Assembly: GCA_003144275.1 (NCBI GenBank)
Contig: NJBF01000001.1
Coordinates: forward strand, 120,001-152,000
Direction of reading: 5' to 3'
DNA: 32,000 nt
Source of the DNA: Candidatus Heimdallarchaeota archaeon B3_Heim
Lineage (GTDB): Archaea > Asgardarchaeota > Heimdallarchaeia > Hodarchaeales > Hodarchaeaceae
The notes beneath the pieces are model-generated. The model was not told the origin of the DNA and ran no database searches. It saw nothing but the letters and a program-made list of their open reading frames with translations. Below, in pieces: positions 1,232 to 25,043 of this stretch. Each line of letters opens with the position of its first letter. Position 1 is the stretch's first letter. Made by a program: the position numbers and the translations under genes.

Positions 1232-3865
1232 TTGGTTGATTTACCAATGAAGATTTTAAAAACCACTACTTCACAAATCACTTTTATTTCAGATGTTACC
1301 AAGAATAAAATTCATGAGCAAGATTATATCATCCTTTTTGATAAAAATAAATCAACTAATAAACATTTATTAGCACAAGTTAGTAGATTATCTCAAGAAA
1401 AAGCGAATGAGATGAAAGGGATTGCATATATTCTTGGAGAGTTTGAAATGGATGAATTTCGCTTATCTACATGTCGAATTCCTGTTTCAATGTATGCTGA
1501 GATATCTATTCCTCCTAAAGGATTGGTTTCAAGGATTATTTCCTATGATGGAGAAGATGGCATATATTTAGGCGATATTATTACTTCTCCCTCTACAACT
1601 GATCCATTCTTAATATCACCCCAATTTTTAGAACGACATGTTCTCTGTGTAGCCAGTACTGGAGCTGGTAAGTCATACAGCATTGGGGTGTTATTAGAAG
1701 AAATTCTTCTGAAATTCAATAACGCCTCAGTCCTACTGTTTGATGTTCATAATGAGTATTGGGGGTTAGGATTAGAAAATACAGGAAAAGAAATAAAAAA
1801 CCTTGATCGAGCAGGATATACCCCACAAGGTTTCACTGAAAAATTAATGGTCTTTGATGAAGATTCGATTGGATTAGGTACTCATTTTGATCTACCAAAG
1901 ATAAGAAGACTATTGGAAATATCAGCAGCTCAAGAAAATGTTCTCACAAATCTGATACAAGAACCTGAGAAACTCGAGGACATTTTAAGAAAAGTTAAAG
2001 ATGCAGATATCCATACAGGAACTCGTGAGAATTTAATTTCGAAAATTAACATTCTTCAAAAACAATCTGTGTATACGAAGGATTTAGGTGTATCCTCTCT
2101 CGTACAGTCAAATCAAGTGTCAATCATTCGATTAGATCAATATACTGATGAAAAAAAGCGTAATATGCTGGTAAATGAGCTGCTTACGCAAATTTTTATG
2201 ATGAAGGTTCATGGAAAGATACCAAAAGAACAAGAGATTCTTATTATTATAGAAGAAGCACATAGATTTGCCCAAAAAAGTGACATACTTGCTAGAATAG
2301 CACGTGAAGGTAGGAAATTTGGAATATACGAAATATTAATTTCTCAAAGACCAGGAGATTTGCCAGATAATATAATTGCGAATATGAATACCTTAGTGGC
2401 TCTTCGGATTAAATCTGAGAAGGATATTACAAAAATACGTTTAATGGAAGGTATAAATACAGATACTGTCTCAGTTCTCCCTCATCTCACAAAGGGAGAA
2501 GCTCTTATAGTGGGCCTTCAAGATGGCATCTCAAGTCCTATTAAAATTCAAATTCGGGCACGGTTAACCAAACATGTTGATCCTCAAGAGGATTCCATGC
2601 CTGATTCGATACCCCGATTCGATTCTTCTCATCCTATCAGGGAGAGGCAATTATCAAAACAGGATCCCCCAAAAGATGAGAATAGCTTTGAATTAGATTT
2701 AGCTCCATCACAGATCACCATGAAACCAATAGATTACAAGGATTTAGTAAATCTTCTTTATTGTGAGCATATAATGATTACACACAAGCTCACAGGTATT
2801 TGTTTGTATAAATTTGGTACTTCAATGCTGAAAGTTGATCCACAATTAGTTTCTGGATTTTTAACCGCAATTTCAAGTCTCTTTACAGAATTGAAGGACG
2901 AAGAAATCAAAGATCGCACTATAATTAGGGATTTTTCAGAGGAAATCGGTGATCGGACTTTTAAAATAATAACTATTGAAGGAAACTACTCTGTAACCTC
3001 TTTAATATTAGAACGTCCTCCAAAATTCGGTAAACGTTTGAGAAAACGAGGACGAGAATTTGTATATGCATTTGAAAAAAAATTTCATAAGCTCCTCACC
3101 AACTTTTTTGGAGAACTAGATCCATTTGAAGCAGTCATTGATGATTTAGATCAATTTCTAGGTTTATCATTATTAGGCCCACTCAAACTTAAGACAGATA
3201 GAGAAAATGGAATGAATGACAACCAGCTTGTCCAAATTATTCAGGAACAGAGCAATAAATTAGCAAATTCAGAAGGATTATTCATAAAAGAAATTGTCAA
3301 TCACGGCCTTATTAGTTCCAAATTCAAGTACATAGAAATTTTTAAAAATCTTCTAAACCTATTCAGAGAGGATTTATTAGTTCCACTAGATCCAAACCGA
3401 AGATTACCTAATTTTGATCGTAACGATGTATCTGATGAAAGTGATATTGTTACTGAATACAAAAAATCGATCTTACAATCCCTCCAGGAAGATGAACTCC
3501 CCACTGAATCTCTTTCTAACCAAGCGGACGATACAAATCCTGAATGGGTAACACAAATAGTAGCAGAAATCCTTGAGAACAGTTTACCAGATCAGCTCAA
3601 AGAGGATATATTAATCCGAGATATCATCTTTGAGTCAAATATTAAACTAAAGGACAATACACCTAATACAAGTGTTTATTCTAAACCAGAACTAGTTAAA
3701 AGCTTAAATTTATTGTCCAAGGCTGGTTTCAAAACAATTACAAAAACTACTAATCCTTTGAAAGGACCTAAATTTATTATTTCATCAGGAAGTGCTGAAT
3801 TGGTCGTATCGATATCATTGTATAATTCAAATAAATATCTCTGCGTCATTGCACAGCTAGATTGA
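1232..3865 (+). CDS. HerA/FtsK-superfamily (DUF87-type) ATPase with C-terminal Asgard longin-like and winged-helix-like extension
   Basis: N-terminal HAS-barrel-like region, Walker A ASTGAGKS, LFDVHNEY, Walker B IIIEEAHRF, REGRKFG (Arg finger) and ISQRP. After the ATPase end (RLTKH) comes a linker, then HIMITHKLTGICLY..VDPQLVSGFLTAISSL..FEKKF..NFFGELDPF (longin-like). TTG start; true start uncertain. Confidence 0.85.
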   Translation: MVDLPMKILKTTTSQITFISDVTKNKIHEQDYIILFDKNKSTNKHLLAQVSRLSQEKANEMKGIAYILGEFEMDEFRLSTCRIPVSMYAEISIPPKGLVSRIISYDGEDGIYLGDIITSPSTTDPFLISPQFLERHVLCVASTGAGKSYSIGVLLEEILLKFNNASVLLFDVHNEYWGLGLENTGKEIKNLDRAGYTPQGFTEKLMVFDEDSIGLGTHFDLPKIRRLLEISAAQENVLTNLIQEPEKLEDILRKVKDADIHTGTRENLISKINILQKQSVYTKDLGVSSLVQSNQVSIIRLDQYTDEKKRNMLVNELLTQIFMMKVHGKIPKEQEILIIIEEAHRFAQKSDILARIAREGRKFGIYEILISQRPGDLPDNIIANMNTLVALRIKSEKDITKIRLMEGINTDTVSVLPHLTKGEALIVGLQDGISSPIKIQIRARLTKHVDPQEDSMPDSIPRFDSSHPIRERQLSKQDPPKDENSFELDLAPSQITMKPIDYKDLVNLLYCEHIMITHKLTGICLYKFGTSMLKVDPQLVSGFLTAISSLFTELKDEEIKDRTIIRDFSEEIGDRTFKIITIEGNYSVTSLILERPPKFGKRLRKRGREFVYAFEKKFHKLLTNFFGELDPFEAVIDDLDQFLGLSLLGPLKLKTDRENGMNDNQLVQIIQEQSNKLANSEGLFIKEIVNHGLISSKFKYIEIFKNLLNLFREDLLVPLDPNRRLPNFDRNDVSDESDIVTEYKKSILQSLQEDELPTESLSNQADDTNPEWVTQIVAEILENSLPDQLKEDILIRDIIFESNIKLKDNTPNTSVYSKPELVKSLNLLSKAGFKTITKTTNPLKGPKFIISSGSAELVVSISLYNSNKYLCVIAQLD

Positions 3866-3910
3866 ACGATAAACCTCACTTGAAGTGTGTGTTACCTTTT
3901 TAAACTTGAA

Positions 3911-3925
3911 AGGAAGAAAAAAATG
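3911..3925 (-). terminator. Probable oligo-T terminator between the convergent longin-domain genes
   Basis: A-rich run on + (ggaagaaaaaaatg) reads as a T-tract on the minus strand about 30-40 nt after the 3954 stop, as in archaeal oligo-U terminators. Confidence 0.35.
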
Positions 3926-3953
3926 AGAAGGGGGGGTTTCTGAGACGAAAAAG

Positions 3954-6524
3954 TCATGCTCCTGGGAAAAGATCTTTTATAGTATTTGTTTCTCCTGCAA
4001 ACGCATCTAAGTCTCCTAACCACTTAGGAAGCGTCTTCTTATGCCTCGTTTCAAAGTCGTTCAAAAATTCACCTAATTTTTTACGTAATTCGGTTGAGGT
4101 ACTGTCTGCAAATATTGCGGCAAATACCCAATTCGCATATTCGATTGTTAGAACAACATCACCGTGATCAATAGTCTTGAGGAGTTGTTCGCTCCGAACA
4201 GCTTCTTTTGCGAATGAAGTAATAGCAGAGAACAACCCAGCCACCAGTGCTGGTTCTACTTGCGATTCTTCTGCAAAAGTATGCGAAAGAACAGCACGTC
4301 CATCCAACATCATTACGTGAAGTGAATCGATGGTTGCTTCTTCGAAAGAATAAGAGAATTCACGGTGCCAGAGGGTTATGATTTGACTAAAGGATACTTC
4401 AGCATCATAGGTAACCTCATCGAGAATCGAATGGACCTCACTGATAGAGATCCCGATATTCTCTGTTAACTGAGAAATAGTTAGCATATGACCTGTAATT
4501 GCATTTCGGATCACTTCACCTTTCTCTGAATTCATCCATGCTTTTGAAACTAATTTCTCAGTATCTTCATCTTTAGAGGGAGTAGCGGCAATCAATAATA
4601 TGTCAGCTTTCTTTTCTAGCTCACCCACACTCGGTAATCGTGTAACATCGGAAAAAATTGATTTATACTGAGTTTTTTCCTCACCTTTCTGTGTTCGTAC
4701 GTGGAATTGTTTTCCTGCAAGGAATAAAATTCCCCCGTAGACGAGGATGACAGCCAACGGATGAAAGAGATTAAAGGGGATAGAGAGAATTTGGAGAAAC
4801 TGACCTCCCGATCCTTGCCAAATCACAGGTATTTGTCGAAGTTCAGGTAGAATGAATTGATACCCCCCGAATGTCCCACCTTTCCAGACTGCGGTTAACC
4901 AATTCAAATCAATGTACCCCAAAACGGATGTTGCCTGTAGAAAAGGATACACCAGTATTTCATTCTGATAATTAGGATATACATCGCCAACAGAGAAACC
5001 TAGTATAGTATACCAACCCTCATTGTACCAACCAAACAAAAAAAGGCTCACAGATAAGATTGAAAGGTAGGTGACGATGCTTGTTCCAATGACGCTCCAA
5101 TTCCATCTACGAATGACTAAGACTAATGTAGCACTCAACAGAAAACTTGCATAATTTTGAGTTAACCAAAAGAAGGTCGCGTACTGAACGGTATCAAAAT
5201 TCGTGAAAATATTCTTAACAATAACTAAATATGTTAAAAAACCAACAGAGAGGAGAAAACCAACCAAAATACCAGAAACCGTTCCTTTAGCTATATTTAT
5301 CCTGTTGAAACGAGCTGTTGTAATTTTAATAGTTTTAAAGCTTTCTATAAGTTTAAGCAATAGATAAATTGAAAATGGTTCGAATATATCTAAAAAGAGA
5401 ACGAAAAACAATGATACCATAATGAAATAGACAATAAAGTACGACACCACAAATATCTGATCGAAATATTGTACGAGGAACAAAATGACAGCCAAACCTG
5501 ACATAAAAGCTCCAACAGTAGATAAACTTTGAACCATTGTTACATATAATTGGTTACCTAAAAATTTACCCTTCCTTGACAAATGACTGGCCTTTATTAG
5601 ATATATACTGAATACTAAAGTTGCTATATAGGCAAAATATATTTCTAAAAACCACCCCATCGATGTTCCTTGGAGTAAGCTTGGATTTTCAGTCTCCCCG
5701 AGGAGTTGTAAAATTGTCATCAGAAGAAACAGAGTTATGGGTAATATCGCAATTAGTACCTTCAATAATTCTCTTTCATTTTCCCAATTCTTTGCTTTTA
5801 CTCGTTTCATTACCTCATGAAAGGGAGAAGTCTCGAGCTCAAATTGTATCTCCTGAAATCTCCGAGAAATAGATCTTACTTCCGAGAGTTGGTTTTCTAA
5901 ATCTTTATTTTCAGCTTCAAATTCCGTAAGAGCAACGTTCTTTTCATATGCCTCTGATTCGCCAGCTTTCTTCAATTGCTTTCGAAGTTGTGAAATCTCA
6001 TTTTTATTGCGTTTTATCAGTTTCTTTATAGGAGATATCTCATTCCGCTTCTCAGTCCAAGTTTGATAGAAAAGAATTGTCATGGATAATATGGGTGAGA
6101 TCCCAAAGACAAAAGCAAGAATTACTATAGGATAACTAAGGTAGATAACTATTGAATTGGCAATATGTCCAAATAAATACTTGATAAGAAGTGGTATAGG
6201 CGCAGATATTGCTCCTTGAGTAATTACCGATTCTGAATCCCATAAAGTGGTCCAGCCTGATGTTCCAGCTATGGGATAGTATTCTTGATCAATGAATTGA
6301 TTCGGATCTGGTACAAACGAATTCAAGATACTTGGAAATATGAAATAAGCGATATAGAAGACAACAAAGCCGATATAAGCACGATTATAAATTATTGCTA
6401 AGAAATTTTCTGATTTTCGCCTTGTATATAAGTACGGAATAAATAGAACTATTAGTGGGGTTAAAGTTAATACGATAGAGACAAGAAGGTTCATCGGATT
6501 TGTTAGGGGATCAATACTCGTCAT
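3954..6524 (-). CDS. Polytopic membrane protein (about 12 TM) with a coiled-coil loop and a C-terminal Asgard longin-like domain
   Basis: About 12 hydrophobic segments by eye and a charged heptad-like loop (KKLIKRNKNEISQLRKQL..ENKDLENQLSEV). C-terminus SLHVMMLDGRAVL..VEPALVAGLFSAITSFAKE..LKTIDHGDVVLTIE..FLNDFETRH..WLGDLDAF fits the Asgard longin-like pattern. Confidence 0.75.
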   Translation of the reverse strand: MTSIDPLTNPMNLLVSIVLTLTPLIVLFIPYLYTRRKSENFLAIIYNRAYIGFVVFYIAYFIFPSILNSFVPDPNQFIDQEYYPIAGTSGWTTLWDSESVITQGAISAPIPLLIKYLFGHIANSIVIYLSYPIVILAFVFGISPILSMTILFYQTWTEKRNEISPIKKLIKRNKNEISQLRKQLKKAGESEAYEKNVALTEFEAENKDLENQLSEVRSISRRFQEIQFELETSPFHEVMKRVKAKNWENERELLKVLIAILPITLFLLMTILQLLGETENPSLLQGTSMGWFLEIYFAYIATLVFSIYLIKASHLSRKGKFLGNQLYVTMVQSLSTVGAFMSGLAVILFLVQYFDQIFVVSYFIVYFIMVSLFFVLFLDIFEPFSIYLLLKLIESFKTIKITTARFNRINIAKGTVSGILVGFLLSVGFLTYLVIVKNIFTNFDTVQYATFFWLTQNYASFLLSATLVLVIRRWNWSVIGTSIVTYLSILSVSLFLFGWYNEGWYTILGFSVGDVYPNYQNEILVYPFLQATSVLGYIDLNWLTAVWKGGTFGGYQFILPELRQIPVIWQGSGGQFLQILSIPFNLFHPLAVILVYGGILFLAGKQFHVRTQKGEEKTQYKSIFSDVTRLPSVGELEKKADILLIAATPSKDEDTEKLVSKAWMNSEKGEVIRNAITGHMLTISQLTENIGISISEVHSILDEVTYDAEVSFSQIITLWHREFSYSFEEATIDSLHVMMLDGRAVLSHTFAEESQVEPALVAGLFSAITSFAKEAVRSEQLLKTIDHGDVVLTIEYANWVFAAIFADSTSTELRKKLGEFLNDFETRHKKTLPKWLGDLDAFAGETNTIKDLFPGA

Positions 6525-6853: not shown

Positions 6854-8257
6854 TTATTCATGGAGTTCCTCTGGCACTATCTCATATGTATGTTGACCCC
6901 AGACATCCTTGATGATTAGAGGTAATCGTAAAATATTCTGTCCTATCAGTGACCAATTCTTCTGTTTAACCAATTTACGAATTAATCTAACATAACGTGA
7001 TGGATTTATTAGGGGGGAATTTGTGATAAATTCAGCTTTTAAGACAAGATCGAAAATTTCCTCTGTAGTAAGCTCAGACGTGCCAAAACTTCTATCATTA
7101 TAGGAATAATACTGATCGGGTTTTATATTTCCATTCGATACGGCCTGCTGCCAAAAATCAGACCCTATTAAATACAAAAAAGGAAACGGTTGAGAAATAT
7201 CAATTTTTGCGGTACGGCAGAAGTCAATTGTTTTTTGTATTTCCTCAACTGATTCGTATGGCCCACCAACAATAAATGTAGCAATAATAATCAACTGATA
7301 TTCATCAGCCAAGTCGAACGCCCTAGAAAGTGTATGTGACCAATTACGAGGATTTCCACTAATCTTTTTGTACATATCAATCATACGTGGAACAACTGAT
7401 TCTAATCCAACTAGGAGCCCTGTAGCTCCTGCTTGTCTCATCAAACGGGCTCCCTCTTCGTCAATATGATCTGCACGGGCCAATGACCAGAACGGTATAT
7501 CAAGTCCTTCTTTAATTTTTAATCTCAGGACTTCTTTGGTGTGCTTAGAATTCACCTGGAGGCTGTCATCGATTACGACGATATTTTTGTACTTCAATTC
7601 GTTTTGAATTATCGCAATTTCTTCAACAATTTTTTCTGGAGATCTTTGGCGATGAGCCATTGTCAAGACGGATCTACTACAAAAACGACATTTCCGCCAT
7701 GAACAGCCCCGTACCCACTTCATACTTGCTGAATCGCCTATCCAAATATTTGTCATTCTGTTGTATTCAATATGCCTGACAAAACTACGATCAGGAAAAG
7801 GTAAAGCATCAATATCTTTTATGTAACCTAAATCATAAAACTTTTTTTCAGGATTGCGGATAATATCCACTATCCTTTGTTCTGCTTCTCCTGCTACCGC
7901 AATATCAATATGTGAACATTCTAGAAGGACTTTTTCTTTAATGTAGGTGACATGAGGCCCTCCTGCTAAGGTTGTGATATTGGAGTTTACTCTTTTAGCA
8001 ATTTGTAAAATAGAATAGGCGACTCTACGGAATGGTGTCATAACTGTGACACCTATATGAGTAAAATCCCCGTTAGCAATGAGTTTCATCATTCTTAGAG
8101 GTGAAAAGCCCTCTGCAGAAAGATCAATGACAGTTACTTTAATACCTTCTCTTTTTAGAATAGTTGCTAATGTTAGAATACCTAGAGGTTGACAAAATCG
8201 CTCCACGTTTCCCCATTTGTCAGGAGGAAAGACAAGTAAAACTGATTCTACGGACAT
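6854..8257 (-). CDS. B12-binding-domain radical SAM protein (class B-like); substrate unknown
   Basis: N-terminal PLGILTLA..GGPHVT..GEAE cobalamin-binding segment, RGCSWRKCRFC cluster motif, IDDS, GLES, FIVGGPYES. Confidence 0.85.
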   Translation of the reverse strand: MSVESVLLVFPPDKWGNVERFCQPLGILTLATILKREGIKVTVIDLSAEGFSPLRMMKLIANGDFTHIGVTVMTPFRRVAYSILQIAKRVNSNITTLAGGPHVTYIKEKVLLECSHIDIAVAGEAEQRIVDIIRNPEKKFYDLGYIKDIDALPFPDRSFVRHIEYNRMTNIWIGDSASMKWVRGCSWRKCRFCSRSVLTMAHRQRSPEKIVEEIAIIQNELKYKNIVVIDDSLQVNSKHTKEVLRLKIKEGLDIPFWSLARADHIDEEGARLMRQAGATGLLVGLESVVPRMIDMYKKISGNPRNWSHTLSRAFDLADEYQLIIIATFIVGGPYESVEEIQKTIDFCRTAKIDISQPFPFLYLIGSDFWQQAVSNGNIKPDQYYSYNDRSFGTSELTTEEIFDLVLKAEFITNSPLINPSRYVRLIRKLVKQKNWSLIGQNILRLPLIIKDVWGQHTYEIVPEELHE

Positions 8258-8477: not shown

Positions 8478-10166
8478 CTATCGTCTCTTGCGATAAGATG
8501 CGTAAAATAGTGGAATTGCAATTAATGCCGAAAGTAATCCGAATCCTGGAATATTTGTTCCCGTAGTACTAGTATCTGATGGACCATCGGTTGTTGTCTC
8601 TTGAGTCGCTGCTACAGCAGCTACTGCTGAATAAGAAGGATCATGAACGATTTGTCCACCAACCCAGTCTCCAAACTCAGTAACTGTCAGATAATTGGAA
8701 GCATCAATTGCATAGCTGGGGGGACTTTGAAAACCAAGTCCATTGATAAGAACATGTTCTGTAAAGTCTTCATAAAGTCCGTGAGTCAAGTCGAAATATT
8801 TTCTTGCGAGGGAGGTCGTTATGTGAGCGAGCCCACTATGAGGTTTTGCTACAATGACTACATCACGATCTACATCTGCATTAAAACCCAGTTCTTCAAC
8901 ACCTTTTAATTTATACGTATCCTTATTTTCAAAATCAGTTTTAAAATCATCTTCGGCGGAAATAGAGTTACTTGTTGAGTCCCAAGTCCCAAAGTTTAGT
9001 CCATGAGAATTTGTTTGTGTAACTACAGCAAATCCAAATCCATTGGCGTCATTGATTCTTTTCTGAGCGTCATCCGACGGATAAACTTCTACGTTAAAGG
9101 TTGGTGAGAGCTTATCTGGTAATGTACCAAGCAGCGGCAATGAAAGGTCGATACCAGGAAGTTCTATGTCATATGTGAGAGATTCTTCAAAAGAGTTAGG
9201 ATATTCAGTCGTGTTAATTCCTTCACCAGAATTAGTAATAAGCCAACTTACCTCACCAATATTGTAAAGAGTATTGATATCTGTAGAAACTTTAGTAATT
9301 GTTTCAGTTTCAATTGTTTCAGTGTATTGATTCCAGTTTACTTGATAATCAAATGATAGATAATCAAAGACGGTAACTGCATCAAATCCAGAGGCCATCG
9401 CTAATAATTTTGATATATCAGTTTGAAGAAGGGCAGCAGGAATAGCTGACAAAGGATTGTATGCGTCCCTCTCAACTCGTTGCCAAAAAGTCATCACATT
9501 TGTATAATTAATTCCAAAGTGGATTTCTGTGTTACTTACCACGTCGAATTTTGTATGTACATCATATTTAGGTATCGGATCGCCTCCACGACTTTGCACA
9601 AGGGTATTCAATGCATCTGTTAATTGTCCGAAAGCTAATGTATAACCAATATAAATCTCGTCACCTGAATTAATGACTTTATCTTCAGGAGTAGTTGAGT
9701 AAGCAATTAATCCCATGAAGTTATTTGAAACATATTTTTCTGCATGCTGATATGTTCCAGAGTTATCTTTTTCAAGATTGGTCCAATGTTCTAGTAGTTG
9801 TTGAAAAGGAGTGGTGCCATTAACAGTTACAATTGACTGATCACTATATCCTAATGTATCAAGAGCGGCCATTGTTTGCGAATTTAAAATATCACTAAGA
9901 TAGAAGTTCATTTCAACTTTTTCCAATCCTGTAAATACTACTTCAACCCCTGAAGTATTAATATAAGACATAAACACAGACGCGTTATCTTCAGGAAAGA
10001 ATGGTTTTAAAGGAACGTCAATGGTTTCATAAAAATAATCTTCATCAAAAGAATGAGTCAAGTTGAATTCCTGACTGGTTGCTGTTGCTGATTGAACCAA
10101 AGAAAAACCAAGGACAAATATTAAGGCTAAAGATAATTGGACTGGTATAATTTTTGGATTTTTCAT
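8478..10166 (-). CDS. Cell-surface (S-layer-like) glycoprotein with PGF-CTERM sorting signal
   Basis: N-terminal signal peptide, several N-x-S/T sequons (NLT, NAS, NTS, NGT, NYT, NTT), Thr-rich linker, then IPGFGLLSALIAIPLFYASYRKRR (PGF + TM + basic tail). Confidence 0.8.
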   Translation of the reverse strand: MKNPKIIPVQLSLALIFVLGFSLVQSATATSQEFNLTHSFDEDYFYETIDVPLKPFFPEDNASVFMSYINTSGVEVVFTGLEKVEMNFYLSDILNSQTMAALDTLGYSDQSIVTVNGTTPFQQLLEHWTNLEKDNSGTYQHAEKYVSNNFMGLIAYSTTPEDKVINSGDEIYIGYTLAFGQLTDALNTLVQSRGGDPIPKYDVHTKFDVVSNTEIHFGINYTNVMTFWQRVERDAYNPLSAIPAALLQTDISKLLAMASGFDAVTVFDYLSFDYQVNWNQYTETIETETITKVSTDINTLYNIGEVSWLITNSGEGINTTEYPNSFEESLTYDIELPGIDLSLPLLGTLPDKLSPTFNVEVYPSDDAQKRINDANGFGFAVVTQTNSHGLNFGTWDSTSNSISAEDDFKTDFENKDTYKLKGVEELGFNADVDRDVVIVAKPHSGLAHITTSLARKYFDLTHGLYEDFTEHVLINGLGFQSPPSYAIDASNYLTVTEFGDWVGGQIVHDPSYSAVAAVAATQETTTDGPSDTSTTGTNIPGFGLLSALIAIPLFYASYRKRR

Positions 10167-10349: not shown

Positions 10350-12026
10350 TTAAGTTCGAGAACTTCTCATTCTTACCCGAAATACTACAAGTATTGCGAG
10401 AGAAAATACACCTGGAAAGAGTGAAAAATATGAGATTTTAGATAAACCAAGATCTAAGTTATTAGATTTTAGTATCGCTTTTGAAAGTGATTTTATTTTA
10501 GTTGGATAACCCATCCACGATTCTATTTGAAAATCTTGTACATATTCTGCTGATGTGAGATACAGATTAGCTGTTTTAAGTAGTTGTTCCGTACTAAGAG
10601 ATGTTGTGGACATATTTGCAACGAAACGTCTAACGCTTTCAGCCACAAATGGGTTCAAAAGAGAAGATTCCTCTAAGAACAGGATATTACCACTTAAACT
10701 AGGATGTTGAGTTAATGCAACTAGTTTGATATTTATAGAAGTCAATGACCATTTCTGAGTTTGAAGATCTCGCTGGAGTGCATAATCATGTCCTTTTATA
10801 TGATTTATGAATAAGAGATCTTCATTTTGTGTAATTGTAATATTATCTTTAGCTGTGATATCAGATTGTATTAGCTCCTCTCTTGATGTGTTACATCCAT
10901 CAATTTTGATCGAGGAACTCTTCTTTGATTCGAAACCTTCCAATACACCAAGATTGTGGGATACAAGAAGTGAAAGAGAGGCATGGTTAAATAAAGTCAT
11001 TCTACTGTAAATATCATTTCCTTTATACCATGAAATCGTATCATTAACACGAATTAACCCAGGATATTCTTTTTCGATGTGTTTTTCAGTAGTTTCATTC
11101 CAAGTCAATCCTGAAGGCAATTCTTCATTTATAATCAAGTTTTGGATAGCTCCAACATTCATTTCTACTTGTGTTTCCACTCCTGAATTAGTAGATGTCG
11201 AATATTTCATTATTCTCGTAGTAAAGCTTATTGATTCAAATTCTATTAAAACAAATTTATCTGATATACTAAAACTACTTATCTGTTCGATATTAACCCC
11301 ATTTGTTTGAAAGAGATATGTTATATTCGAATATGTTGTAGTAATTGTCAATTCATTGTTGTTTTCTTGTATCTCAACCTCCATTGGAATAATACTAGAA
11401 AATGTAGGGATGTCAATAGTCGTTGTATGACCATCTATTGAATTTTGAACCATTTGACTAGAGTTCAATGAATCTAACAAAAATTCTAGGATTTTTAGAG
11501 GTATATTCGCATATCCTACTAAATACTGGTCATAAATAAAGTTCTGTCCATCTAACTTTAGAGCTAGTCCCAATAAGTCTTGAGTGAGAATCACACTCTC
11601 GCCTGAAGGTAAACTAAACACTGACAAATATTTGAAATATGGAAGGGATGCTTGCCATTCTACCTCAAAGGGGGTAATAGATTCAGTTCTCTTGATACTT
11701 TCCACAGCTATGAAAGCAGATTTTATTTCGTGAGAATCATGGCCGATCATTGTAATATTATTGTCTATTTCAGGATCGAGATCATTCTGAATTGGAAATT
11801 CTTCTCCTGTAATTAAATCACTTAGCAATTGTAAAGATTCAGCAGATGGAGTATTACTGTTATAATCGAATTTAATTCCGAATAACGAATTTTGATAGAA
11901 GGGATCTAGTTGCTCAAATTGAAAGTCAAGACTTTTACCAATAACTCCCACATTGAAAGATGAGATGATTATGAACAAAAAAATAGTAGGAATGCAGAAT
12001 CGAATGATAGAGCTTCTGTAACCCAT
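10350..12026 (-). CDS. Second secreted, C-terminally anchored surface glycoprotein; probable divergent paralog of 8478..10166
   Basis: Signal peptide, many sequons, C-terminal FPGVFSLAILVVF + RVRMRSSR. Collinear blocks of similarity to the neighbouring gene (see findings). Its ATG abuts the stop of the upstream gene (TAAATG). Confidence 0.65.
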   Translation of the reverse strand: MGYRSSIIRFCIPTIFLFIIISSFNVGVIGKSLDFQFEQLDPFYQNSLFGIKFDYNSNTPSAESLQLLSDLITGEEFPIQNDLDPEIDNNITMIGHDSHEIKSAFIAVESIKRTESITPFEVEWQASLPYFKYLSVFSLPSGESVILTQDLLGLALKLDGQNFIYDQYLVGYANIPLKILEFLLDSLNSSQMVQNSIDGHTTTIDIPTFSSIIPMEVEIQENNNELTITTTYSNITYLFQTNGVNIEQISSFSISDKFVLIEFESISFTTRIMKYSTSTNSGVETQVEMNVGAIQNLIINEELPSGLTWNETTEKHIEKEYPGLIRVNDTISWYKGNDIYSRMTLFNHASLSLLVSHNLGVLEGFESKKSSSIKIDGCNTSREELIQSDITAKDNITITQNEDLLFINHIKGHDYALQRDLQTQKWSLTSINIKLVALTQHPSLSGNILFLEESSLLNPFVAESVRRFVANMSTTSLSTEQLLKTANLYLTSAEYVQDFQIESWMGYPTKIKSLSKAILKSNNLDLGLSKISYFSLFPGVFSLAILVVFRVRMRSSRT

Positions 12027-13523
12027 TTAGTTCGCCTCCAGTACCTTATCCAAAGATTCTACTCGATTCGGATTTATAATGTAAGAAGAACGTTTCTTTT
12101 CTTTAATTATCATAATTATTCCTAAATCAGAAAGCCTTTTGATATGATGTTGAACACTCGAATGATGCACATTTATTTTAGAGGATATTTTTGACAAAGA
12201 AAGTGGCTTACTGTTTCGTAATAATACTTTACAAAGCTCTTTAGCCACTTCACTTTTTAAAGCTAAGGCTATTTCTGATATTTGCACCGACTCTTCCCCT
12301 GTTAAATAGAAAATATGATATTTTCCAATTTTATGATGTGTTACTAGATTAAAGTCATCTAACGCTTGTAAATGCCATAAGAGAGATGAAATTCCACATC
12401 CAAGAGTACGCTGTATTTCTCTTAAATGGGCTCCTTGTTCTCCCTTCTCTTCTAAATATCCAACTATTTGCATCCGCATTTCATTATCCAATAAATCATC
12501 TTCATTTAATCTTCTTTTCTGAGGAGAATAGGCGATATGTGCAATAAAGAAGAAAATTCCTATTGTTGCTCCTGTGATCAACTCACGAATTCTTGAAAGG
12601 ATACCAAATTTTATCAACCCAATGAACGAGAGAACGAGTCCAATAGAGATAATCCCAACTGTAGCTAACTGCTCAAATCCTGTAAACTGAAACATTCCTG
12701 GGGGATTTGACAATGTTTCTGTGGTTAAGAGAGCAATATCTCCTAAGACATCTATTAAATCATCAGCAACAGGATAATTTATTCCCATTAATCTAAAATC
12801 ATTTGTATCTTGAGAAAGTGCGACACTAGGACAAAAACTACCTACAATCACTTTGTTTCGAACTAACCATAGACCCGATTTAAATTTTGAAAGATAAGAC
12901 TCATTTTCAGGATGGTCTATTTCAGCTAGTAATACTGTTTTTTCGTGTAAACCAACCCAAGAAGAAGTCCCAGTGAAATTATATGCTAATTGATCGAGTC
13001 CTAGGGAAGGAAGCGTTTCATTAATAATATGAATATTGTGAACTTGAGAGTTTTGATTTATCGGATAGACTTCAGGCCAATAGCTTGTTATACCCAAATT
13101 CTGTAATTCGGTGCTAGGCGTTCTGTCAAAGAACTTGTTTAAGACGAATAATCCCTTTCCACTTTGAATCCAAGTAACTAAGTCACCTAAAAAACCGAAA
13201 TCAATAGGTAATTGTAGTTCATTGATCCACCAAATAGCCCTTACACTTTGATTGTCAAAATTAAATGAGGAATTTGACAACACAGCAGTTATGTTATAGA
13301 AATCCACATTGATCTCTGCATTCAAGACTAGTTCATTGCTAAGTCGTTTATCGTTATCTGAGCCATAAAAGATTGTAATTTTAGGGAGTTCTGCATCGGT
13401 TGTCATAGAAATATGAGCTAAGGATGCTTGAAATGTCAAGGGGGAAACCACTACAAAGAATAAGAAGGTAAGCATTAGAAATTGAACTTTGCTAGAAAAT
13501 CGTCTCACCATTCTTGAAAGCAC
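12027..13523 (-). CDS. Membrane-spanning transcriptional regulator: extracellular domain, TM helices and two cytoplasmic winged-HTH domains (COG3398-like)
   Basis: Signal peptide, sequon-rich middle (NIT, NSS, NQS, NET, NFT, NES), two hydrophobic helices, then LLDNEMRMQIVGYL..GAHLREIQRTLGCGISSLLWHLQAL and LSLSKISSKINVHHSSVQHHIKRLSDLGII. Start may be the ATG at 13511. Confidence 0.75.
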   Translation of the reverse strand: MLSRMVRRFSSKVQFLMLTFLFFVVVSPLTFQASLAHISMTTDAELPKITIFYGSDNDKRLSNELVLNAEINVDFYNITAVLSNSSFNFDNQSVRAIWWINELQLPIDFGFLGDLVTWIQSGKGLFVLNKFFDRTPSTELQNLGITSYWPEVYPINQNSQVHNIHIINETLPSLGLDQLAYNFTGTSSWVGLHEKTVLLAEIDHPENESYLSKFKSGLWLVRNKVIVGSFCPSVALSQDTNDFRLMGINYPVADDLIDVLGDIALLTTETLSNPPGMFQFTGFEQLATVGIISIGLVLSFIGLIKFGILSRIRELITGATIGIFFFIAHIAYSPQKRRLNEDDLLDNEMRMQIVGYLEEKGEQGAHLREIQRTLGCGISSLLWHLQALDDFNLVTHHKIGKYHIFYLTGEESVQISEIALALKSEVAKELCKVLLRNSKPLSLSKISSKINVHHSSVQHHIKRLSDLGIIMIIKEKKRSSYIINPNRVESLDKVLEAN

Positions 13524-14324: not shown

Positions 14325-14816
14325 TCAACCCAGTCTTAATGTCTCAGATCTGCTTCTTACGAATTTATTAACAGCCATTTTCCCATCAGTCAAGACTTGA
14401 CGTATATTAATTGCAAAATCATCCCAATAAGCAATTAATCTCTCTCTTTGATCCTTAGTTTTTACCATTTCTGTTATAAGAAAAAAGGATATTTGATAAC
14501 CTTCTTCTGGACTTCTAATTACTTTAACATGAGGACCAGGATTTCGCCATAATTCATTCCGGATACGGTCAAAAATGAACTCTTCTACAGGATCATTAAA
14601 TGTTAATTTAAGTGATATAATTGCAGAATTCCCTTGTTTTATCATTATCCCATTCTTAAACTCAACGGTCTCTCGTTTTACGTTCTCACAGCATGGGTGA
14701 TCTGGATCAAGAATGCAGTTCGGTTCCATACCCGACGTACAAGGGACTGGATATAGTTGTATTTGTGATTCGTCTAATGTCAATGTAAACTCACCAAATA
14801 TGACAAATTTCATCAT
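14325..14816 (-). CDS. arpC4: Arp2/3 complex subunit 4 (ARPC4/p20-Arc)-like protein
   Basis: Alignment from memory to human ARPC4: NSAIISL~NSVRVSI, NDPVEEFI~ADEIEKIL, RSPEEGYQISFFL~RKPVEGYDISFLI, RLIAY~KLVDF, LTDGKMAVNKFVR~ISEMKLSVNARAR. Length (163 aa) is similar and the blocks are collinear. Confidence 0.75.
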   Translation of the reverse strand: MMKFVIFGEFTLTLDESQIQLYPVPCTSGMEPNCILDPDHPCCENVKRETVEFKNGIMIKQGNSAIISLKLTFNDPVEEFIFDRIRNELWRNPGPHVKVIRSPEEGYQISFFLITEMVKTKDQRERLIAYWDDFAINIRQVLTDGKMAVNKFVRSRSETLRLG

Positions 14817-14930
14817 TAGGAGAATAGAAGTGTCATTAGGAGGTGCCAGATTTTAAGTTAATAAAATTGAGGAGGGAACCTAAGAGTACCCCTTATGGAA
14901 AAGGATGTTTTATTTCCCCCGAATAAAAAA

Positions 14931-15350
14931 TTAAAAGTCTCGAGTTTTCAAGAGCTTCATTTTAGTGGAGCTAACCAAATAATGCATTAAACCTAACTTT
15001 ACATTTGAATCTGTAATTAACACTAGAATCGTACTTTGTACTTTTGAAATTATTCCTAAACCAATGGGAGTTTGGACATGAACAAAATCAATCTGATCCC
15101 CCAAATTTAATTGAATACACGCACTTGAGAATGTACTAACAATTCCTGCTACCATTGCTGATACAACTGTCTCTACTTCATCTGATATAGGCAGTGTTCT
15201 CGCAGATAATATGGGAAACCCTTCCTCACTTACTAACAGAACTTTTTTTACACCTTTTACCGTTCCAAGACCATCAATGATTTTTTGAACTTTGTCCATT
15301 GAATTATATCCGTTATTATCTCCTAATGTCATATTTTCAAAAGTGGCCAT
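14931..15350 (-). CDS. Roadblock/LC7 (MglB/LAMTOR-like) domain protein
   Basis: VKGVKKVLLVSEEGFPI..VSAMVAGIV..LVLITDSNVKLGLM is a typical Roadblock pattern; AGGTGA SD lies upstream of the ATG. Confidence 0.85.
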   Translation of the reverse strand: MATFENMTLGDNNGYNSMDKVQKIIDGLGTVKGVKKVLLVSEEGFPILSARTLPISDEVETVVSAMVAGIVSTFSSACIQLNLGDQIDFVHVQTPIGLGIISKVQSTILVLITDSNVKLGLMHYLVSSTKMKLLKTRDF

Positions 15351-16255: not shown

Positions 16256-16434
16256 ATAGGCATTTTCTTTTTCATCTCCGTCTTGGAGGATTGATTGGGG
16301 GAAGATTTCGTTGAAAAAAATTATTCTACTCGTTGTATTTTTGAATCTTCAAAAGAAAACTAATATTAAATATAACAATTTTGAATAAGATTAGCATAAG
16401 AATTCACAAGAAATCTGTGAGTTGGCGGATTAAC

Positions 16435-18621
16435 TTGGCAAACGAAGTAGTACTGAAAGTAGCTGAAGCCAGACAAAGGGACGTAGGCCGTGGAAAGATT
16501 CGAATGGATGATATCAACATGAGAGAGATTGGAATAACTACTGGCGATGTTGTTGAAATCCGAGGCCGCCAAAAAACAGGTGCTATAGCTTGGCCTGCTT
16601 ACATTGAAGATCAAGGAGCTGGTATTGTACGCATGGACGGGATCATTCGAAGAAACGCCAAAGTATCTCTAGAAGAAAACGTCCGTATACGTAAAGCCCA
16701 AATCAAAGTTGCTAAAACAGTCAATATTGCACCAACTCGTCAAATATCTTTAGATTATGGATTTGAAGCCTTTGTAAAAAGAAAACTACTAGGCTATCCT
16801 GTTTCTAAAAATGACACAGTACTTATTCCAATATTAGGTCGATCTATTCCATTCGTCGTTAATTCTACGACTCCTGCAGAGATTGTACTTATTACTGATA
16901 CAACCAAGCTCAATGTTTCAGAAAAACCGATTTCTGAAACAGAAACCAGTATGCCAGGAGTAAGCTATGAGGATATCGGAGGATTATCTGATGCAATTCA
17001 AAAAATTCGAGAAATGGTGGAGCTTCCTCTAAACCACCCAGAACTCTTCAAGAAATTAGGAATTGATCCTCCCAAAGGAGTATTACTACATGGTCCTCCT
17101 GGAACAGGAAAAACCCTTATTGCAAAGGCAGTTGCTAATGAATCTGAAGCGCATTTTATTCCCATACAAGGCCCAGAAATTATGTCCAAATTTTATGGGG
17201 AAAGTGAAGCCCGCTTACGAGATATCTTCAAAGAGGCGGAAGACAATGCACCCAGCATCATTTTTATTGATGAAATTGATGCTATCGCTCCCAAAAGAGA
17301 AGATGTGACGGGAGAAGTTGAAAGAAGGGTTGTTGCCCAGATTCTTGCATTAATGGATGGCCTAGAAAGTCGAGGAGAGACCATTGTGATTGGAGCCACA
17401 AACCGCCCTAATGCTGTTGATCCTGCATTACGAAGACCAGGGAGATTTGATAGAGAAATTGAAATTGGTGTACCTGATCAAAATGAAAGACTGGAGATAC
17501 TTCAAATTCATACAAGACGAATGCCAGGTATTGAAAAAGTTGACATCAAGAAGTTAGCCGTTATTACACACGGATTTGTAGGCGCAGATCTCGCAGCCCT
17601 AGGCAGAGAAGCTGCAATGAGGAAATTACGCGAAATTCTTCCTGATATAAATTTAAGCGATGATACAATCCCACCAGCAGTACTTGACAACTTGGAAGTT
17701 GAAGACCGTCATTTTGGAGATGCTTTAAAAGAAATTCATCCCTCTGCTATACGTGAAGTATTCATAGAAGTTCCCAATGTACGATGGACGAACATTGGAG
17801 GTATGGACCAAGTAAAACAGGAACTTATCGAAATCGTAGAATGGCCATTCAAACAGAAAAAGAATTTTGAACGAATTGGCATCCATCCACCTCGAGCGGT
17901 CTTGTTATTCGGTGCTCCTGGCACAGGTAAAACTCTGTTGGCCAAAGCAATTGCCACGGAAAGTCAGGTAAATTTTATTAGTGTTAAAGGTCCCGAATTG
18001 ATTTCTAAATGGGTAGGGGAAAGTGAAAAGGCAATCAGAGAAATATTTAGAAAAGCTCGCACTGCAGCTCCAGCTCTGATATTTTTTGATGAAATTGATG
18101 CAGTAGCGGCAAAACGTGGATCATCTGGCTCCTCTGGCGCCAATGAACGCGTAATAAGTCAACTCTTGACAGAACTTGCTGGTATTGAACCTTTGCGTGA
18201 TGTCTCTGTTTTAGCTGCAACAAACCGTCCTGATATGATTGATCCCGCTCTTCTCAGACCAGGACGCTTTGATAGGGTCGTATATATACCACCTCCCGAA
18301 GAAGATAGCCGGAAAAAGATCTTAGAAATACATACCCGAGATATGCCATTAGGAAAAGATGTGAATTTAGATCGATTAGCTAAAGAAACGGAATTTTATG
18401 TAGGAGCAGATCTCGAAGCCATTTGTAGAGAAGCGGGAATGCTCGCATTACGAGAGAACTTAATGGCTGAAATAGTGTTATGGCGGCATTTTGAACAGGC
18501 GTTATCGAGTGTCCACTCCTCTTGTACACCAGACATGATGAAATGGTATAAAGATCAAGAATCGCAATTCAGACGACGAGTAGGAATGGATGCACCTCAA
18601 ACGATTCCACTCTTCGGATAA
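16435..18621 (+). CDS. cdc48: CDC48/VCP/p97-family AAA+ ATPase
   Basis: N-domain [15 protein letters not shown]1 Walker [10 protein letters not shown]2 [40 protein letters not shown]. Start placed at TTG 16435 (MANEVVLKV) rather than the track's 16381. Confidence 0.97.
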
Positions 18622-18770
18622 GAGAAAGGCTAAGTGTTAATTCGAATAGTTAAATAATTGTTTATCATTACTTGAGAAATGGCGTTAACAGCCATAAAGT
18701 TCACAAAATCAATCTAATTTTCGAGATTTATTCCAAAAGGAACGATTAAAACAAGGTATAGTGACATTTA

Positions 18771-19043
18771 ATGGAATCACCAAAGTACCCATATTGGAGA
18801 CCATTTCCTTTAACTTTTTCAATAATGAATATTGTCGAGCGAAGAGAAGGGATTCTGTTAGAAGATGATTTAGTTCGTCTATTAGAGTCAGATGTGGGGG
18901 AATTTTCTGATCGAGAATTGAATCAAGCACTAATGAAACTAGAAATCGAAGGATTAATTCATGTCCAAACGATAAAGAAAAATCAAAGAGTAATTAAACG
19001 CATTAAAAAAGGGAACAGATTCCTTACAGTGGGAGAAGACTAA
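18771..19043 (+). CDS. Small winged-helix protein downstream of cdc48
   Basis: EDDLVRLL..FSDRELNQALMKLEIEGLIHV is a wHTH recognition helix plus wing pattern. Confidence 0.65.
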   Translation: MESPKYPYWRPFPLTFSIMNIVERREGILLEDDLVRLLESDVGEFSDRELNQALMKLEIEGLIHVQTIKKNQRVIKRIKKGNRFLTVGED

Positions 19044-19049
19044 TAGATA

Positions 19050-19997
19050 CTAGCTATTTTTTAATTTCAACCCTAGTTTGGCAAGTAATTGGCATACAGG
19101 GCAGGTTTCTTTTGTAGTTAACTCATTACATGACTTACACATGAAGGTAGTTGATGAAACCTCAGATTTCGTGAAATATTGCGATAATGAGTCGTGTACA
19201 TTGATGATATTTACCAAGGTACTGGGACGTTTCTTTTCCATCTCTGATAAAAATGCACGGATGTCGTTTCTCATTGCAGTAAATGCATAGGGACAGGGTA
19301 CTGAATGATATTCCAAATTGTTCGCATGGGCATAAAGTACAATTTCGGGTTCAGATATTTTAACTAATGGACGAATGCGAGGTATGAGTGAAGGAAACTT
19401 TCTCACTGGAATTCTAGAAATTCTTTTAAATCTCCCTGAATCTCCCCGAAGAAGATTCATTACAATTGACTGGGCTTCATCATCTAAATTATGAGCAGTA
19501 GCAATTTTAGTTATTTTTGCTCCCTGACTTCCATAGTTCAAAGCTCTTCGGCGTAAAATACCGCATAATGCACAAGCAGATAAAGAAATTCCCTCCTTCT
19601 TACTCTTATACACGATTTCGTCTAATGTAGCACCATATAAATCTTCAAAAGATACAAGGATATGTTTGAAATTATATTTCGAGGAGATTTTCTTTGTTAA
19701 TTCTAGAAAACCTTCACGATATCCTTCTATTCCTTCATCTATTGTAATTACTGTTACTTGGTTCTTAGAATGACGATTTAAGATGATTTTTGATAACATA
19801 TGTAATAATACAGTACTATCTTTGCCTCCTGAATAGCCTAGACCAATATGATCCACTTTACTTAGCATCTTGTATTTTAATATAGATTTTTTAACACGAT
19901 TTTCAATCAGTTCAAGGAAATGCTGCTTACATAGAATTTTCTTTGTCATGGGATCCTTAGTATATGGTGGATCACTACAACAATTCGATTCCTGCAT
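19050..19997 (-). CDS. ttuA: tRNA 2-thiolation protein, TtuA/Ncs6/CTU1 family (TIGR00269-like)
   Basis: PP-loop SGGKDS, ACALCGILRRR, TAHNLDDEAQ, RIRPL, CPY, C-terminal CKSC..CPVC Zn finger. Confidence 0.9.
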   Translation of the reverse strand: MQESNCCSDPPYTKDPMTKKILCKQHFLELIENRVKKSILKYKMLSKVDHIGLGYSGGKDSTVLLHMLSKIILNRHSKNQVTVITIDEGIEGYREGFLELTKKISSKYNFKHILVSFEDLYGATLDEIVYKSKKEGISLSACALCGILRRRALNYGSQGAKITKIATAHNLDDEAQSIVMNLLRGDSGRFKRISRIPVRKFPSLIPRIRPLVKISEPEIVLYAHANNLEYHSVPCPYAFTAMRNDIRAFLSEMEKKRPSTLVNIINVHDSLSQYFTKSEVSSTTFMCKSCNELTTKETCPVCQLLAKLGLKLKNS

Positions 19998-20014
19998 ATC
20001 GATACAACTGTGGA

Positions 20015-20305
20015 CTATGTTTTACGCTCAGAAACATGCAAATTAACAAGGGGAGGACACACTTTATCTGCGATTACTCCTCCATAAGTTATCGCTTTCT
20101 TTGATAACTCTTCGACATCTAACTTTGAAAATGCGGTTACTTCGAGAAATAAGCTTATCTCGATATTTAATTCTCCCTTTTCAGAGGTTTCTATCGATAT
20201 ATCGATTTCGTTATGCCCTAACTCTTCCCCTGCTTCGGTAACTAAAAAGTTGTGAATTTCCTCATATAAGTAGTCAAGTAGATCATCGGGATTTATAATG
20301 GGCAA
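20015..20305 (-). CDS. DUF3194-like small acidic protein
   Basis: Acidic 96-aa protein with IDISI..ELNIEISL pattern, located directly downstream of prefoldin beta as DUF3194 genes usually are. Confidence 0.55.
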   Translation of the reverse strand: MPIINPDDLLDYLYEEIHNFLVTEAGEELGHNEIDISIETSEKGELNIEISLFLEVTAFSKLDVEELSKKAITYGGVIADKVCPPLVNLHVSERKT

Positions 20306-20356
20306 AGAATTTCAGCTTGATTTGTTCAATGTTAGAGGGGAACGGATGTAAGAAGA

Positions 20357-20701
20357 TCATCCAAGATCTTGACTTAATTTCTTCTGTAATTCCTCAAAAC
20401 GTTCTACATTTTGTTTTTCTTGAGAGGATAATCCTTTTTTCTGAATTTCAAGGAGTTCTCCTTTCTCAGTTAACTCTTTTAAAACGTTTTGAGCCTTTTT
20501 TGGAAACATGACGCCTCCAACAGCTTTCCAGACTTCAGTATCTCCTTCAAGATTTTGTAACTCTTTTTTTGTCACCCCTATTTCTGAAAGGGCTCTCTCA
20601 ATTTCATTTAATTGAATACGGAGATTTTGTATATTTTGTTCAAGAGTCCTATATCGCACCAGTTGTTCTTGTTGAGCGGGGGAGAGTTCAGGGAGTGTCA
20701 T
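20357..20701 (-). CDS. pfdB: Prefoldin subunit beta
   Basis: ELSPAQQEQL coiled coil, EVWKAVGGVMF beta hairpin, second coiled coil; superoperon position. Confidence 0.92.
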   Translation of the reverse strand: MTLPELSPAQQEQLVRYRTLEQNIQNLRIQLNEIERALSEIGVTKKELQNLEGDTEVWKAVGGVMFPKKAQNVLKELTEKGELLEIQKKGLSSQEKQNVERFEELQKKLSQDLG

Positions 20702-20735
20702 TTTTCTTTTTCCTCTGATATTAAGTTCATTTATT

Positions 20736-21008
20736 CTAAGTATTTACAATTTTCTTCGGGATAATTTGAATTAACTCGCTTACCAAAGTAATCCATTTCA
20801 GCATGGAAGAAATGTTTGCTTTCGCTGCCGTAATATCTTGTGAGTTAACAGTCATAATTAACGAATTCGTTTCCAATCTCAACAAGATTTGTGATCTTTC
20901 AAAATGGTGATCATTTACTTCGGGAATTAATGATTCGTAGATGAATTTGGCTTCTTCTGGAGAATCAAGTTGAATTACAGTCTCTATACTAATCTTACTC
21001 TCCATCAT
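20736..21008 (-). CDS. pcc1: KEOPS complex subunit Pcc1
   Basis: EEAKFIYESLIPE..RSQI..SQDITAAKANISSMLKWI; ATGA overlap with the Brix gene stop. Confidence 0.85.
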   Translation of the reverse strand: MMESKISIETVIQLDSPEEAKFIYESLIPEVNDHHFERSQILLRLETNSLIMTVNSQDITAAKANISSMLKWITLVSELIQIIPKKIVNT

Positions 21009-21577: not shown

Positions 21578-21620
21578 AATTCTTCATTTTTACCATAATC
21601 TTATGGGGGTGAAATTCCCC

Positions 21621-21896: not shown

Positions 21897-21946
21897 TTTA
21901 CCACCAAATCTCCAGTTTTAAGTGCCTGTTTTTTACTTTTTCAAAG

Positions 21947-23566: not shown

Positions 23567-23582
23567 TCATTTCACACCATTA

Positions 23583-25041: not shown

Positions 25042-25043
25042 GA

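Follow-up and report, generated by a model that had tools for sequence, protein, structure and literature searches.

A HerA-family ATPase and a polytopic membrane protein with related longin domains form a conserved convergent gene pair in Hodarchaeales

The window analysed here, 32,000 nucleotides of the genome of Candidatus Heimdallarchaeota archaeon B3_Heim (contig NJBF01000001.1, positions 120,001 to 152,000; G000:C57:120001-152000 in our numbering, from an assembly of 3.95 Mb that is 94% complete), contains two convergent genes, one for a HerA-family ATPase (P0001) and one for a polytopic membrane protein (P0002), whose products carry a longin domain of the same subfamily. The gene pair is conserved throughout the family of genomes to which the window belongs, and in our tentative reading, to which we assign a probability of roughly 45%, the ATPase and the membrane protein are functionally coupled. 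A sequence-only reading of the same DNA had proposed the two genes, convergent and 88 nucleotides apart, as parts of one system, and both open reading frames (ORFs) are present as it described them. The genes, their spacer and the two longin domains lie as follows.

1232-3865, plus strand: P0001, gene of a HerA-family ATPase with a C-terminal longin module (ORF, 877 residues from TTG)
2729-3181, plus strand: longin domain of the ATPase, residues about 500-650 (AlphaFold2 model m1bcb8429fe46, VIA, Foldseek)
3866-3953, between the genes: convergent intergenic spacer of 88 nucleotides, with TTTTT on the plus and TTTTTTT on the minus strand
3954-6524, minus strand: P0002, gene of a polytopic membrane protein with a longin tail (ORF, 856 residues)
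3957-4379, minus strand: C-terminal longin domain of the membrane protein, residues 716-856 (VIA and Foldseek on AlphaFold2 model mf7b4423026ac)

The motifs by which the earlier reading had linked the two proteins occur in both, namely VDPQLVSGFLTAISSL (residues 535-550) and FEKKF..FFGELDPF (residues 614-632) in the ATPase, and VEPALVAGLFSAITSF (residues 756-771) and FETRH..WLGDLDAF (residues 824-842) in the membrane protein. The similarity of the two domains is above chance, because BLASTP aligns them with 27% identity over 102 residues (E 6e-06) and a profile of the membrane-protein domain matches the HerA domain at E 1.2e-09. Alignments of 37 HerA tails (A1) and 56 membrane-protein tails (A2) were each folded with AlphaFold2, which gave models with predicted local distance difference test (pLDDT) scores of 74 and 85, respectively. 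DSSP assigns the order b-b-a-b-b-b-a of strands and helices to both, in HerA as (a)-b-b-a-b-b-b-a, and both models have the alpha/beta/alpha sandwich of the longin fold, a five-stranded sheet with a single helix on one side and the C-terminal helices on the opposite side.

In the VIA structure search, which is independent of Foldseek, the membrane-protein tail matched Sec22 with Z 13.8 (root mean square deviation (rmsd) 2.4, 118 residues aligned), CPLANE with 13.0 and VAMP7 with 12.6, and the HerA tail matched the Lokiarchaeal longin 8yqg with Z 11.7, Sec22 with 11.3 and synbindin with 11.1; the top matches to solved longins aligned 114-138 residues for both tails. Foldseek against the PDB returned AP sigma/mu, zeta-COP and TRAPP at probability 1.00, and also Mon1-Ccz1, for the membrane-protein tail, and MON1A, CCZ1, Fuzzy, Inturned, MglB and AP5 sigma for the HerA tail. 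The label longin is better than roadblock because roadblock chains rank below longins in the VIA searches with both tails (Z 7-10). Neither excised domain matched a longin or roadblock family of Pfam (Robl_LC7, Fuz_longin) at E up to 10, a Pfam scan of the HerA C-terminus up to the same limit found no relevant family, and Fuz_longin_1 appeared only among the Atlas feature neighbours, in 22% of members. By the predicted models, the shared domain is a divergent longin subfamily that is recognisable by structure. The sequence-only reading had thus recognised both longins correctly, and the positions it gave them (about 2760-3160 and 3957-4330) agree with the modelled ones.

Linkage of the two genes was surveyed in 83 species genomes of the class Heimdallarchaeia, with one genome per species. 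Every one of the 22 genomes that make up the window's family, its own among them, has the HerA tail module at E <1e-100; the membrane family is present in 21 of the 22 and in both genomes of a second family of the order. HerA and the membrane gene lie convergently on one contig in 21 of the 22 family genomes, and the gap between them is about 100 nucleotides or less in 19 of those 21; in G066 and G068 a 1.6-kb radical-SAM gene stands between them. The exception is G050, whose membrane gene is broken over two contigs, with the tail part adjoining HerA. An intact HerA lies beside a mere membrane-gene remnant in G055 (locus L041, C1:2127000-2132500), one of the 21 and a genome that is 70% complete, in which no match to the membrane region was found; this remnant, a 203-residue ORF (206-residue open frame), comprises the longin end and may reflect a decayed membrane gene or an assembly problem. 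The pair likewise occurs in at least 11 further contigs from other assemblies and metagenomes (L016-L019, L022, L024, L025, L033-L036), and it is kept down to 37% identity of the membrane-protein tail. Even where HerA is only 29% identical and has no N-terminal barrel (L022, L024) the pair persists, and its junction survives there although the outer flanks differ, on both sides in L022 and on the HerA side in L024.

The resulting pattern is asymmetric: the fused HerA always occurs with the membrane gene, while the membrane gene can stand without HerA. No fused HerA away from a membrane gene was seen in the genomes and contigs surveyed, and the linkage that the sequence-only reading had left for checking in relatives thus holds in every one that has the fused HerA. 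A genome-wide check of unlinked lineages for the fused HerA covered G069 and G070, both with separate outcomes. In G069, of the second family, the HerA tail module stands alone on another contig as a 501-residue protein without the ATPase (L027:1342-2847, G069:C406), made up of the longin, the winged-helix-like segment and the C-terminal domain; in G070 no HerA tail module was found in the genome. At the unlinked loci, tblastn for HerA remnants found only the membrane protein's own longin, and one of them, L021, has a left flank similar to that of L024, which is linked. On the membrane-longin tree, lineages with the link are intermixed with lineages that lack it, a pattern that suggests an old link in this order and two or more losses. 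The linkage is real and limited to this clade.

The ATPase is of the FtsK/HerA type, as had been read from the sequence, and its core is intact. PF01935 (DUF87/HerA central domain) matches it with E 2.1e-16 and 61.1 bits against a cut-off of 23.2, PDB matches of the core include 4d2i (1.5e-22 over residues 130-441) and 9x1l (2.2e-26), and the P-loop and the motifs of the FtsK-HerA superfamily are all found: Walker A ASTGAGKS at residue 141, Walker B LIIIEE at residue 337 and the GRKxG motif as GRKFG at residue 360. Residues 1-110 form an N-terminal region that aligns with the barrel region of the solved HerA-like helicase 9x1l. The 37 orthologues are 839-894 residues long and nearly all labelled Hodarchaeales or Heimdallarchaeota; the true start is probably ATG 1247 (Met6, 872 residues) and not TTG 1232, because orthologues are 872 residues long. 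Besides the longin, the protein comprises the following parts.

1568-2566, plus strand: HerA/DUF87 P-loop ATPase core, residues 113-445 (Pfam, PDB matches, motifs)
3182-3397, plus strand: helical winged-helix-like segment, residues about 651-722 (AlphaFold2 secondary structure, one VIA match)
3425-3535, plus strand: acidic low-confidence linker, residues about 732-768 (pLDDT <50, model residues 253-289)
3542-3862, plus strand: C-terminal alpha/beta domain, residues about 771-877 (pLDDT 67-87)

The winged-helix-like assignment is weak because it has a single VIA match, to model residues 168-243 with Z 7.5. The C-terminal alpha/beta domain is kept in all orthologues and has a conserved NPL..G..K motif; an Atlas search with residues 765-877 gave weak matches only (TM-score at most 0.54, features at most 0.81), and there is only a hint that the domain is roadblock-like. 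About five further DUF87 paralogues are encoded in the genome. In all loci examined, HerA is flanked by a thioredoxin-reductase-like gene and the membrane gene, and no nurA, mre11, rad50, Sir2 or other nuclease or effector gene adjoins it there; the locus belongs to the syntenic core genome and not to a variable island.

The membrane protein had been described as a roughly 12-helix partner, and hydropathy together with the charge distribution bears this out, with 11-12 transmembrane (TM) segments in residues 11-604 and a cytoplasmic C-terminus. An external loop of 80 residues spans positions 497-576, and the remaining parts of the protein are listed below.

4713-6524, minus strand: membrane region of about 12 TM helices, residues 1-604 (hydropathy, alignment A3)
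5760-6071, minus strand: charged coiled-coil-like cytoplasmic loop, residues 152-255 (22 Lys/Arg, 19 Asp/Glu)
4380-4697, minus strand: beta-hairpin and helical, helix-turn-helix (HTH)-like cytoplasmic segment, residues 610-715 (AlphaFold2 model mf7b4423026ac, pLDDT 78-94)

The cytoplasmic loop gave weak matches of SMC and coiled-coil type in an NCBIfam scan, and the hairpin/HTH-like cassette that precedes the longin is also found in other Asgard proteins. In alignment A3, E294 and E382 are invariant and D379 is nearly so, all in or near TM helices, and such acidic residues would be in keeping with a role as transporter, channel or enzyme. The membrane region matched no family of Pfam, NCBIfam or the PDB: scans of the first two gave only noise below threshold (DUF2207_C, HpsJ), and a PDB profile search with the family alignment gave 0 matches. 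We found 78 homologues, and when 1.84 billion cluster representatives were searched exhaustively with a profile, only 74 clusters at 50% identity were recovered. This family is small and restricted to the order, and its TM part and longin are always joined, the same longin terminating every full-length member.

The membrane gene is the last of a co-directional cluster, P0119-P0118-P0117-P0002, which was overlooked in the sequence-only reading. The upstream genes are given here together with a sporadic insert.

6854-8257, minus strand: B12-binding radical-SAM gene, sporadic insert (Pfam; also L039:391-1794)
8478-10166, minus strand: P0117, secreted surface protein with a Heimdall-CTERM anchor (NF045529, 27 bits, over cut-off)
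10350-12026, minus strand: P0118, second secreted C-terminally anchored protein
12027-13523, minus strand: P0119, membrane-anchored regulator with tandem winged HTH domains, first gene of the cluster (HTH_20, 1.1e-10)

P0117 and P0118 are each about 560 residues long; P0119 is signal-anchored, with two TM helices and its tandem winged HTH domains in the cytoplasm. P0117 is the deepest conserved partner of the membrane gene, because its homologue lies directly upstream of that gene in six loci, including the LC_3-like ones (L016, L020, L021, L023, L024, L025), and all four genes of the cluster keep their order in L016-L019, L021 and L025. The window departs from this order in that the radical-SAM gene has come to lie between P0117 and the membrane gene. 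This gene, which matches no specific NCBIfam family, is present in five of the 22 family genomes, in four of them inside the locus and at two positions: G054 and the window's genome (G000) have it upstream of the membrane gene, and in G066 and G068, at 75% identity, it separates that gene from HerA. The genome encodes 17 Heimdall-CTERM signals over the cut-off and 29 at E ≤0.1. We considered the TM protein as the sorting enzyme of these signals and rejected it, since the 36 invariant columns of its family hold neither Cys nor His, so that the invariant Cys, Arg and His of archaeosortases are not found together, and a separate archaeosortase-family gene exists at G000:C57:77352-77627 (TIGR04178, 40.3 bits). 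PF09721 gave no match, and the same model also missed a Haloferax control.

About 1 kb beyond P0119, at 14325-15350 on the minus strand of the window, an ARPC4-like gene (PF05856, 3.8e-08) adjoins a stand-alone Roadblock/LC7 gene (14931-15350; PF03259, 5.6e-08). The stretch from 16381 to 25781 is of housekeeping character and encodes CDC48, a PP-loop ATPase, a prefoldin subunit and the exosome proteins Rrp41, Rrp42 and Rrp4.

Other carriers of the longin subfamily of P0001 and P0002 in the genome include a TPR protein and three kinds of membrane protein: two major facilitator superfamily (MFS) transporters, three 7-TM proteins and two giant proteins of the cell surface. The MFS-longin proteins (C31:59815-61623, plus strand, L007:106-1914; C4:37621-39297, minus strand, L008:1468-3144; both G000) have 10 predicted TM helices, match MFS_1 at E 4e-06 and 1e-11 and end in a cytoplasmic longin; similar genes of 550-590 residues occur in most family genomes, often in tandem. 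The 7-TM proteins, about 370-410 residues long with a C-terminal longin (G000 C101:10876-11985, C14:20292-21512, C72:551-1666), have a receptor-like architecture and no Pfam match. The giant proteins of about 1450 residues (G000 C48:37342-41655, C86:7519-11919) possess a signal sequence, one TM helix near residues 1160-1230 and a cytoplasmic longin. On the domain tree the HerA longins group with those of the two giant surface proteins (support 96/89), and the longins of the membrane family form a separate clade (97/93); as the tree places them apart, we rejected an origin of the HerA longin by duplication of its neighbour's. In another Heimdallarchaeia family, 11 of 12 genomes match the longin and winged-helix-like part of the HerA tail, mostly in proteins of about 720-735 residues. 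One of 716 residues (L029:5505-7655, minus strand, G075:C67) joins this part to an FG-GAP/beta-propeller region with weak BBS2/BBS7-propeller matches below the cut-off, and its neighbour gene encodes more than 1790 residues.

Taken together, the locus is best read as a membrane and surface module specific to Hodarchaeales, which in the Hodarchaeaceae-like lineages is accompanied by an accessory motor. The operon comprises a membrane-bound winged HTH regulator, two secreted anchored surface proteins and then the 12-TM protein, which displays its coiled-coil loop and its helical-plus-longin tail to the cytoplasm. The convergent ring ATPase of HerA type, with its catalytic motifs intact, has acquired a C-terminal module of longin, winged-helix-like and alpha/beta parts. 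From these folds, motifs, topology and adjacency we infer that the ATPase may be physically recruited to, or regulated with, the membrane protein through longin-containing tails that would serve for docking, either directly or through another component common to both, for instance a small GTPase, and that it would supply mechanical work on a substrate, translocation or remodelling, at the membrane. Functional coupling, which we put at the roughly 45% stated above, is favoured because adjacency is strict wherever the fused HerA exists and the fused HerA is gone where the link is broken; both proteins moreover bear the same longin subfamily beside a helical segment.

Several observations weigh against such coupling. 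The two genes are convergent and an oligo-T tract stands downstream of each on its own strand; therefore they form no operon and are not co-transcribed. The membrane gene occurs without a HerA neighbour in at least three lineages (the LC_3-like L020 and L023; L021; G070; and the distant 740-residue subgroup L030 and L031). The clade is narrow, and PTPS and MptE-like genes also stay near HerA in all loci examined. Profiles of both domains find at least 20 copies of the longin subfamily in the genome, which by our own estimates (20 copies among about 3,700 genes) would give about 0.1 adjacent longin pair per genome by chance, so one genome proves little and conservation across genomes bears the argument. 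Finally, the closest relatives of the membrane longin are the MFS longins, and the HerA longin lies in another clade, so there is no sign of a dedicated, co-derived pair.

Much of this would be expected if the two proteins were independent neighbours that arose from longin/roadblock shuffling in Asgard archaea, each with its own partners (a GTPase, or itself in a homodimer), their adjacency being synteny inherited in a young clade. We regard this as quite possible. Extensive lineage-specific longin fusions and domain shuffling are documented in Asgard archaea (bioRxiv 10.1101/2020.10.19.343400; for the shuffling also PMC10933270), and the longin copies in varied architectures, the convergent transcription units, longins that are no sister clades and the lineages with a lone membrane gene all fit independence, as does the fact that the surrounding synteny is conserved too. 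However, the junction is kept in every locus with a fused HerA, including those with rearranged flanks and with identities of 29-37%, and the fused HerA was never seen elsewhere and appears degraded or absent when the link is broken. The sequence-only reading had gone further than coupling and proposed that the two longins could pair directly as a heterodimer and so dock the ring of the ATPase, the HerA hexamer, on the membrane protein to give a translocation or membrane-remodelling machine. Each domain is a true longin, and dimers are common for this fold; 8yqg was deposited as a dimer, and longin/roadblock dimers serve as platforms for small GTPases (PMC10933270). The strict adjacency also agrees with this model, as does a search of the genome with the HerA longin, whose top match other than itself is the longin of the membrane protein. 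We nevertheless consider direct docking unlikely: the two longins belong to different clades, that of the membrane protein being closer to the MFS longins, competition from the many further longin tails of the cell would be expected, and the scores for the Ced and VirB4 families lie far below their cut-offs. A complex prediction of the two longin domains with alignments scored 0.02, a value that counts neither for nor against binding.

HerA might instead act on DNA, in repair, defence or uptake, with its C-terminal module as a regulator only, and the membrane protein might serve the surface operon alone. The core has its nearest counterparts in HerA proteins that act on DNA and in anti-phage HerA models, and a winged-helix-like segment follows the longin, but the lack of an adjacent NurA, Mre11, Rad50, Sir2 or other nuclease or effector and the stable position in the core genome speak against it, and the other HerA/DUF87 paralogues could do the repair; this division of labour seems to us quite improbable. 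A broader idea, to which we give slim odds, is that longin tails form a general docking code in Hodarchaeales, in which diverse membrane proteins (the 12-TM protein, the MFS transporters, the 7-TM proteins and the giant single-pass surface proteins) show a cytoplasmic longin and soluble longin machines, including the HerA ring, pair with it. If true, such a code would be a prokaryotic forerunner of the adaptor and cargo recognition in the membrane traffic of eukaryotes, with ATP-powered translocation or remodelling at a surface-protein complex.

Hodarchaeales have been reported as the sister lineage of eukaryotes, in which longins are core adaptor modules of AP, COPI, TRAPP, SNAREs and Rab/Rag regulators. 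To our knowledge, the binding partners of Asgard longins are largely unknown, and the locus offers a concrete, conserved candidate pair of a motor ATPase and a membrane protein that each carry one, with ready specificity controls in the further membrane proteins of this genome that bear a longin tail. If HerA and the membrane protein bind, longin-mediated membrane recruitment would predate eukaryogenesis, and the pair would represent a novel mode of membrane coupling for a HerA motor. If they do not, new longin architectures (HerA, 12-TM, MFS, 7-TM) and a new membrane family restricted to the order are on record all the same. The parts belong to known kinds, and it is already known that longins fuse promiscuously in Asgard archaea; a literature search of incomplete coverage returned no description of HerA fused to a longin, of the present membrane family or of MFS and 7-TM proteins with longin tails, which is weak evidence of novelty. 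The interest of the locus lies chiefly in the concrete binding experiment that it permits in the archaea closest to eukaryotes.

Compared with known systems, P0001 resembles HerA of the HerA-NurA and anti-phage systems in its homologous P-loop core, its motifs and the alignment of its N-terminal region with the barrel of 9x1l, whereas its equivalog scores reach only 80-100 bits against cut-offs of 800-970 (NF040819, 99.8 bits against 970, with no nurA adjacent). It differs from them further by its unique extension of 430 residues with longin, winged-helix-like and alpha/beta parts, by its constant membrane-protein neighbour and by having no nuclease or effector neighbour. A defence system of the Sir2-HerA or DUF4297-HerA kind was rejected, as no partner genes are present and the PADLOC HerA models match the ATPase core only; PADLOC gave no match for P0002, P0117 or P0118. 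As in the Ced and VirB4/VirD4 systems, a polytopic membrane protein is encoded next to a motor of this ATPase superfamily, and the logic of a docked motor is plausible here, but those systems have no longin docking, which is the element proposed here. The parallel with Ced and VirB4/VirD4 drawn in the sequence-only reading therefore holds as an analogy and fails as kinship, with scores far below the cut-offs (CedD 61.5 bits against 600, FtsK_SpoIIIE 17.6 against 24, and the type IV secretion system (T4SS) model T4SS-DNA_transf 12.8 against 20.1) and no CedA or T4SS family match of the membrane protein.

In Mon1-Ccz1, TRAPP Bet5-Trs23, AP sigma-mu and FLCN-FNIP, as here, two longin-bearing proteins are encoded together. 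Alignments of the HerA tail to MON1A, CCZ1, Fuzzy and Inturned have an rmsd of about 19-20 A, so that only a single domain is comparable, and in contrast to those platforms no small GTPase gene was found in the locus. The longin SNAREs Sec22, VAMP7 and Ykt6 share with P0002 the fold and a membrane-held longin on the cytoplasmic side. P0002 differs from them in its reversed order, with 12 N-terminal TM helices followed by a helical segment and a C-terminal longin, in being polytopic where they are tail-anchored, in having no SNARE heptad after the longin and in an identity of about 10%. The multidomain longin and roadblock proteins of Asgard archaea have the same fold, the Lokiarchaeal Roadblock-Longin protein 8yqg being the best structural match of the HerA longin, and they also include Rag-like GTPase-longin fusions and NPRL2-like longins fused to two-component domains. 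Domain shuffling is common to that set and to the present proteins, and what sets the latter apart is the partners of the longin, a HerA motor and a 12-TM protein at this locus and MFS and 7-TM proteins elsewhere in the genome.

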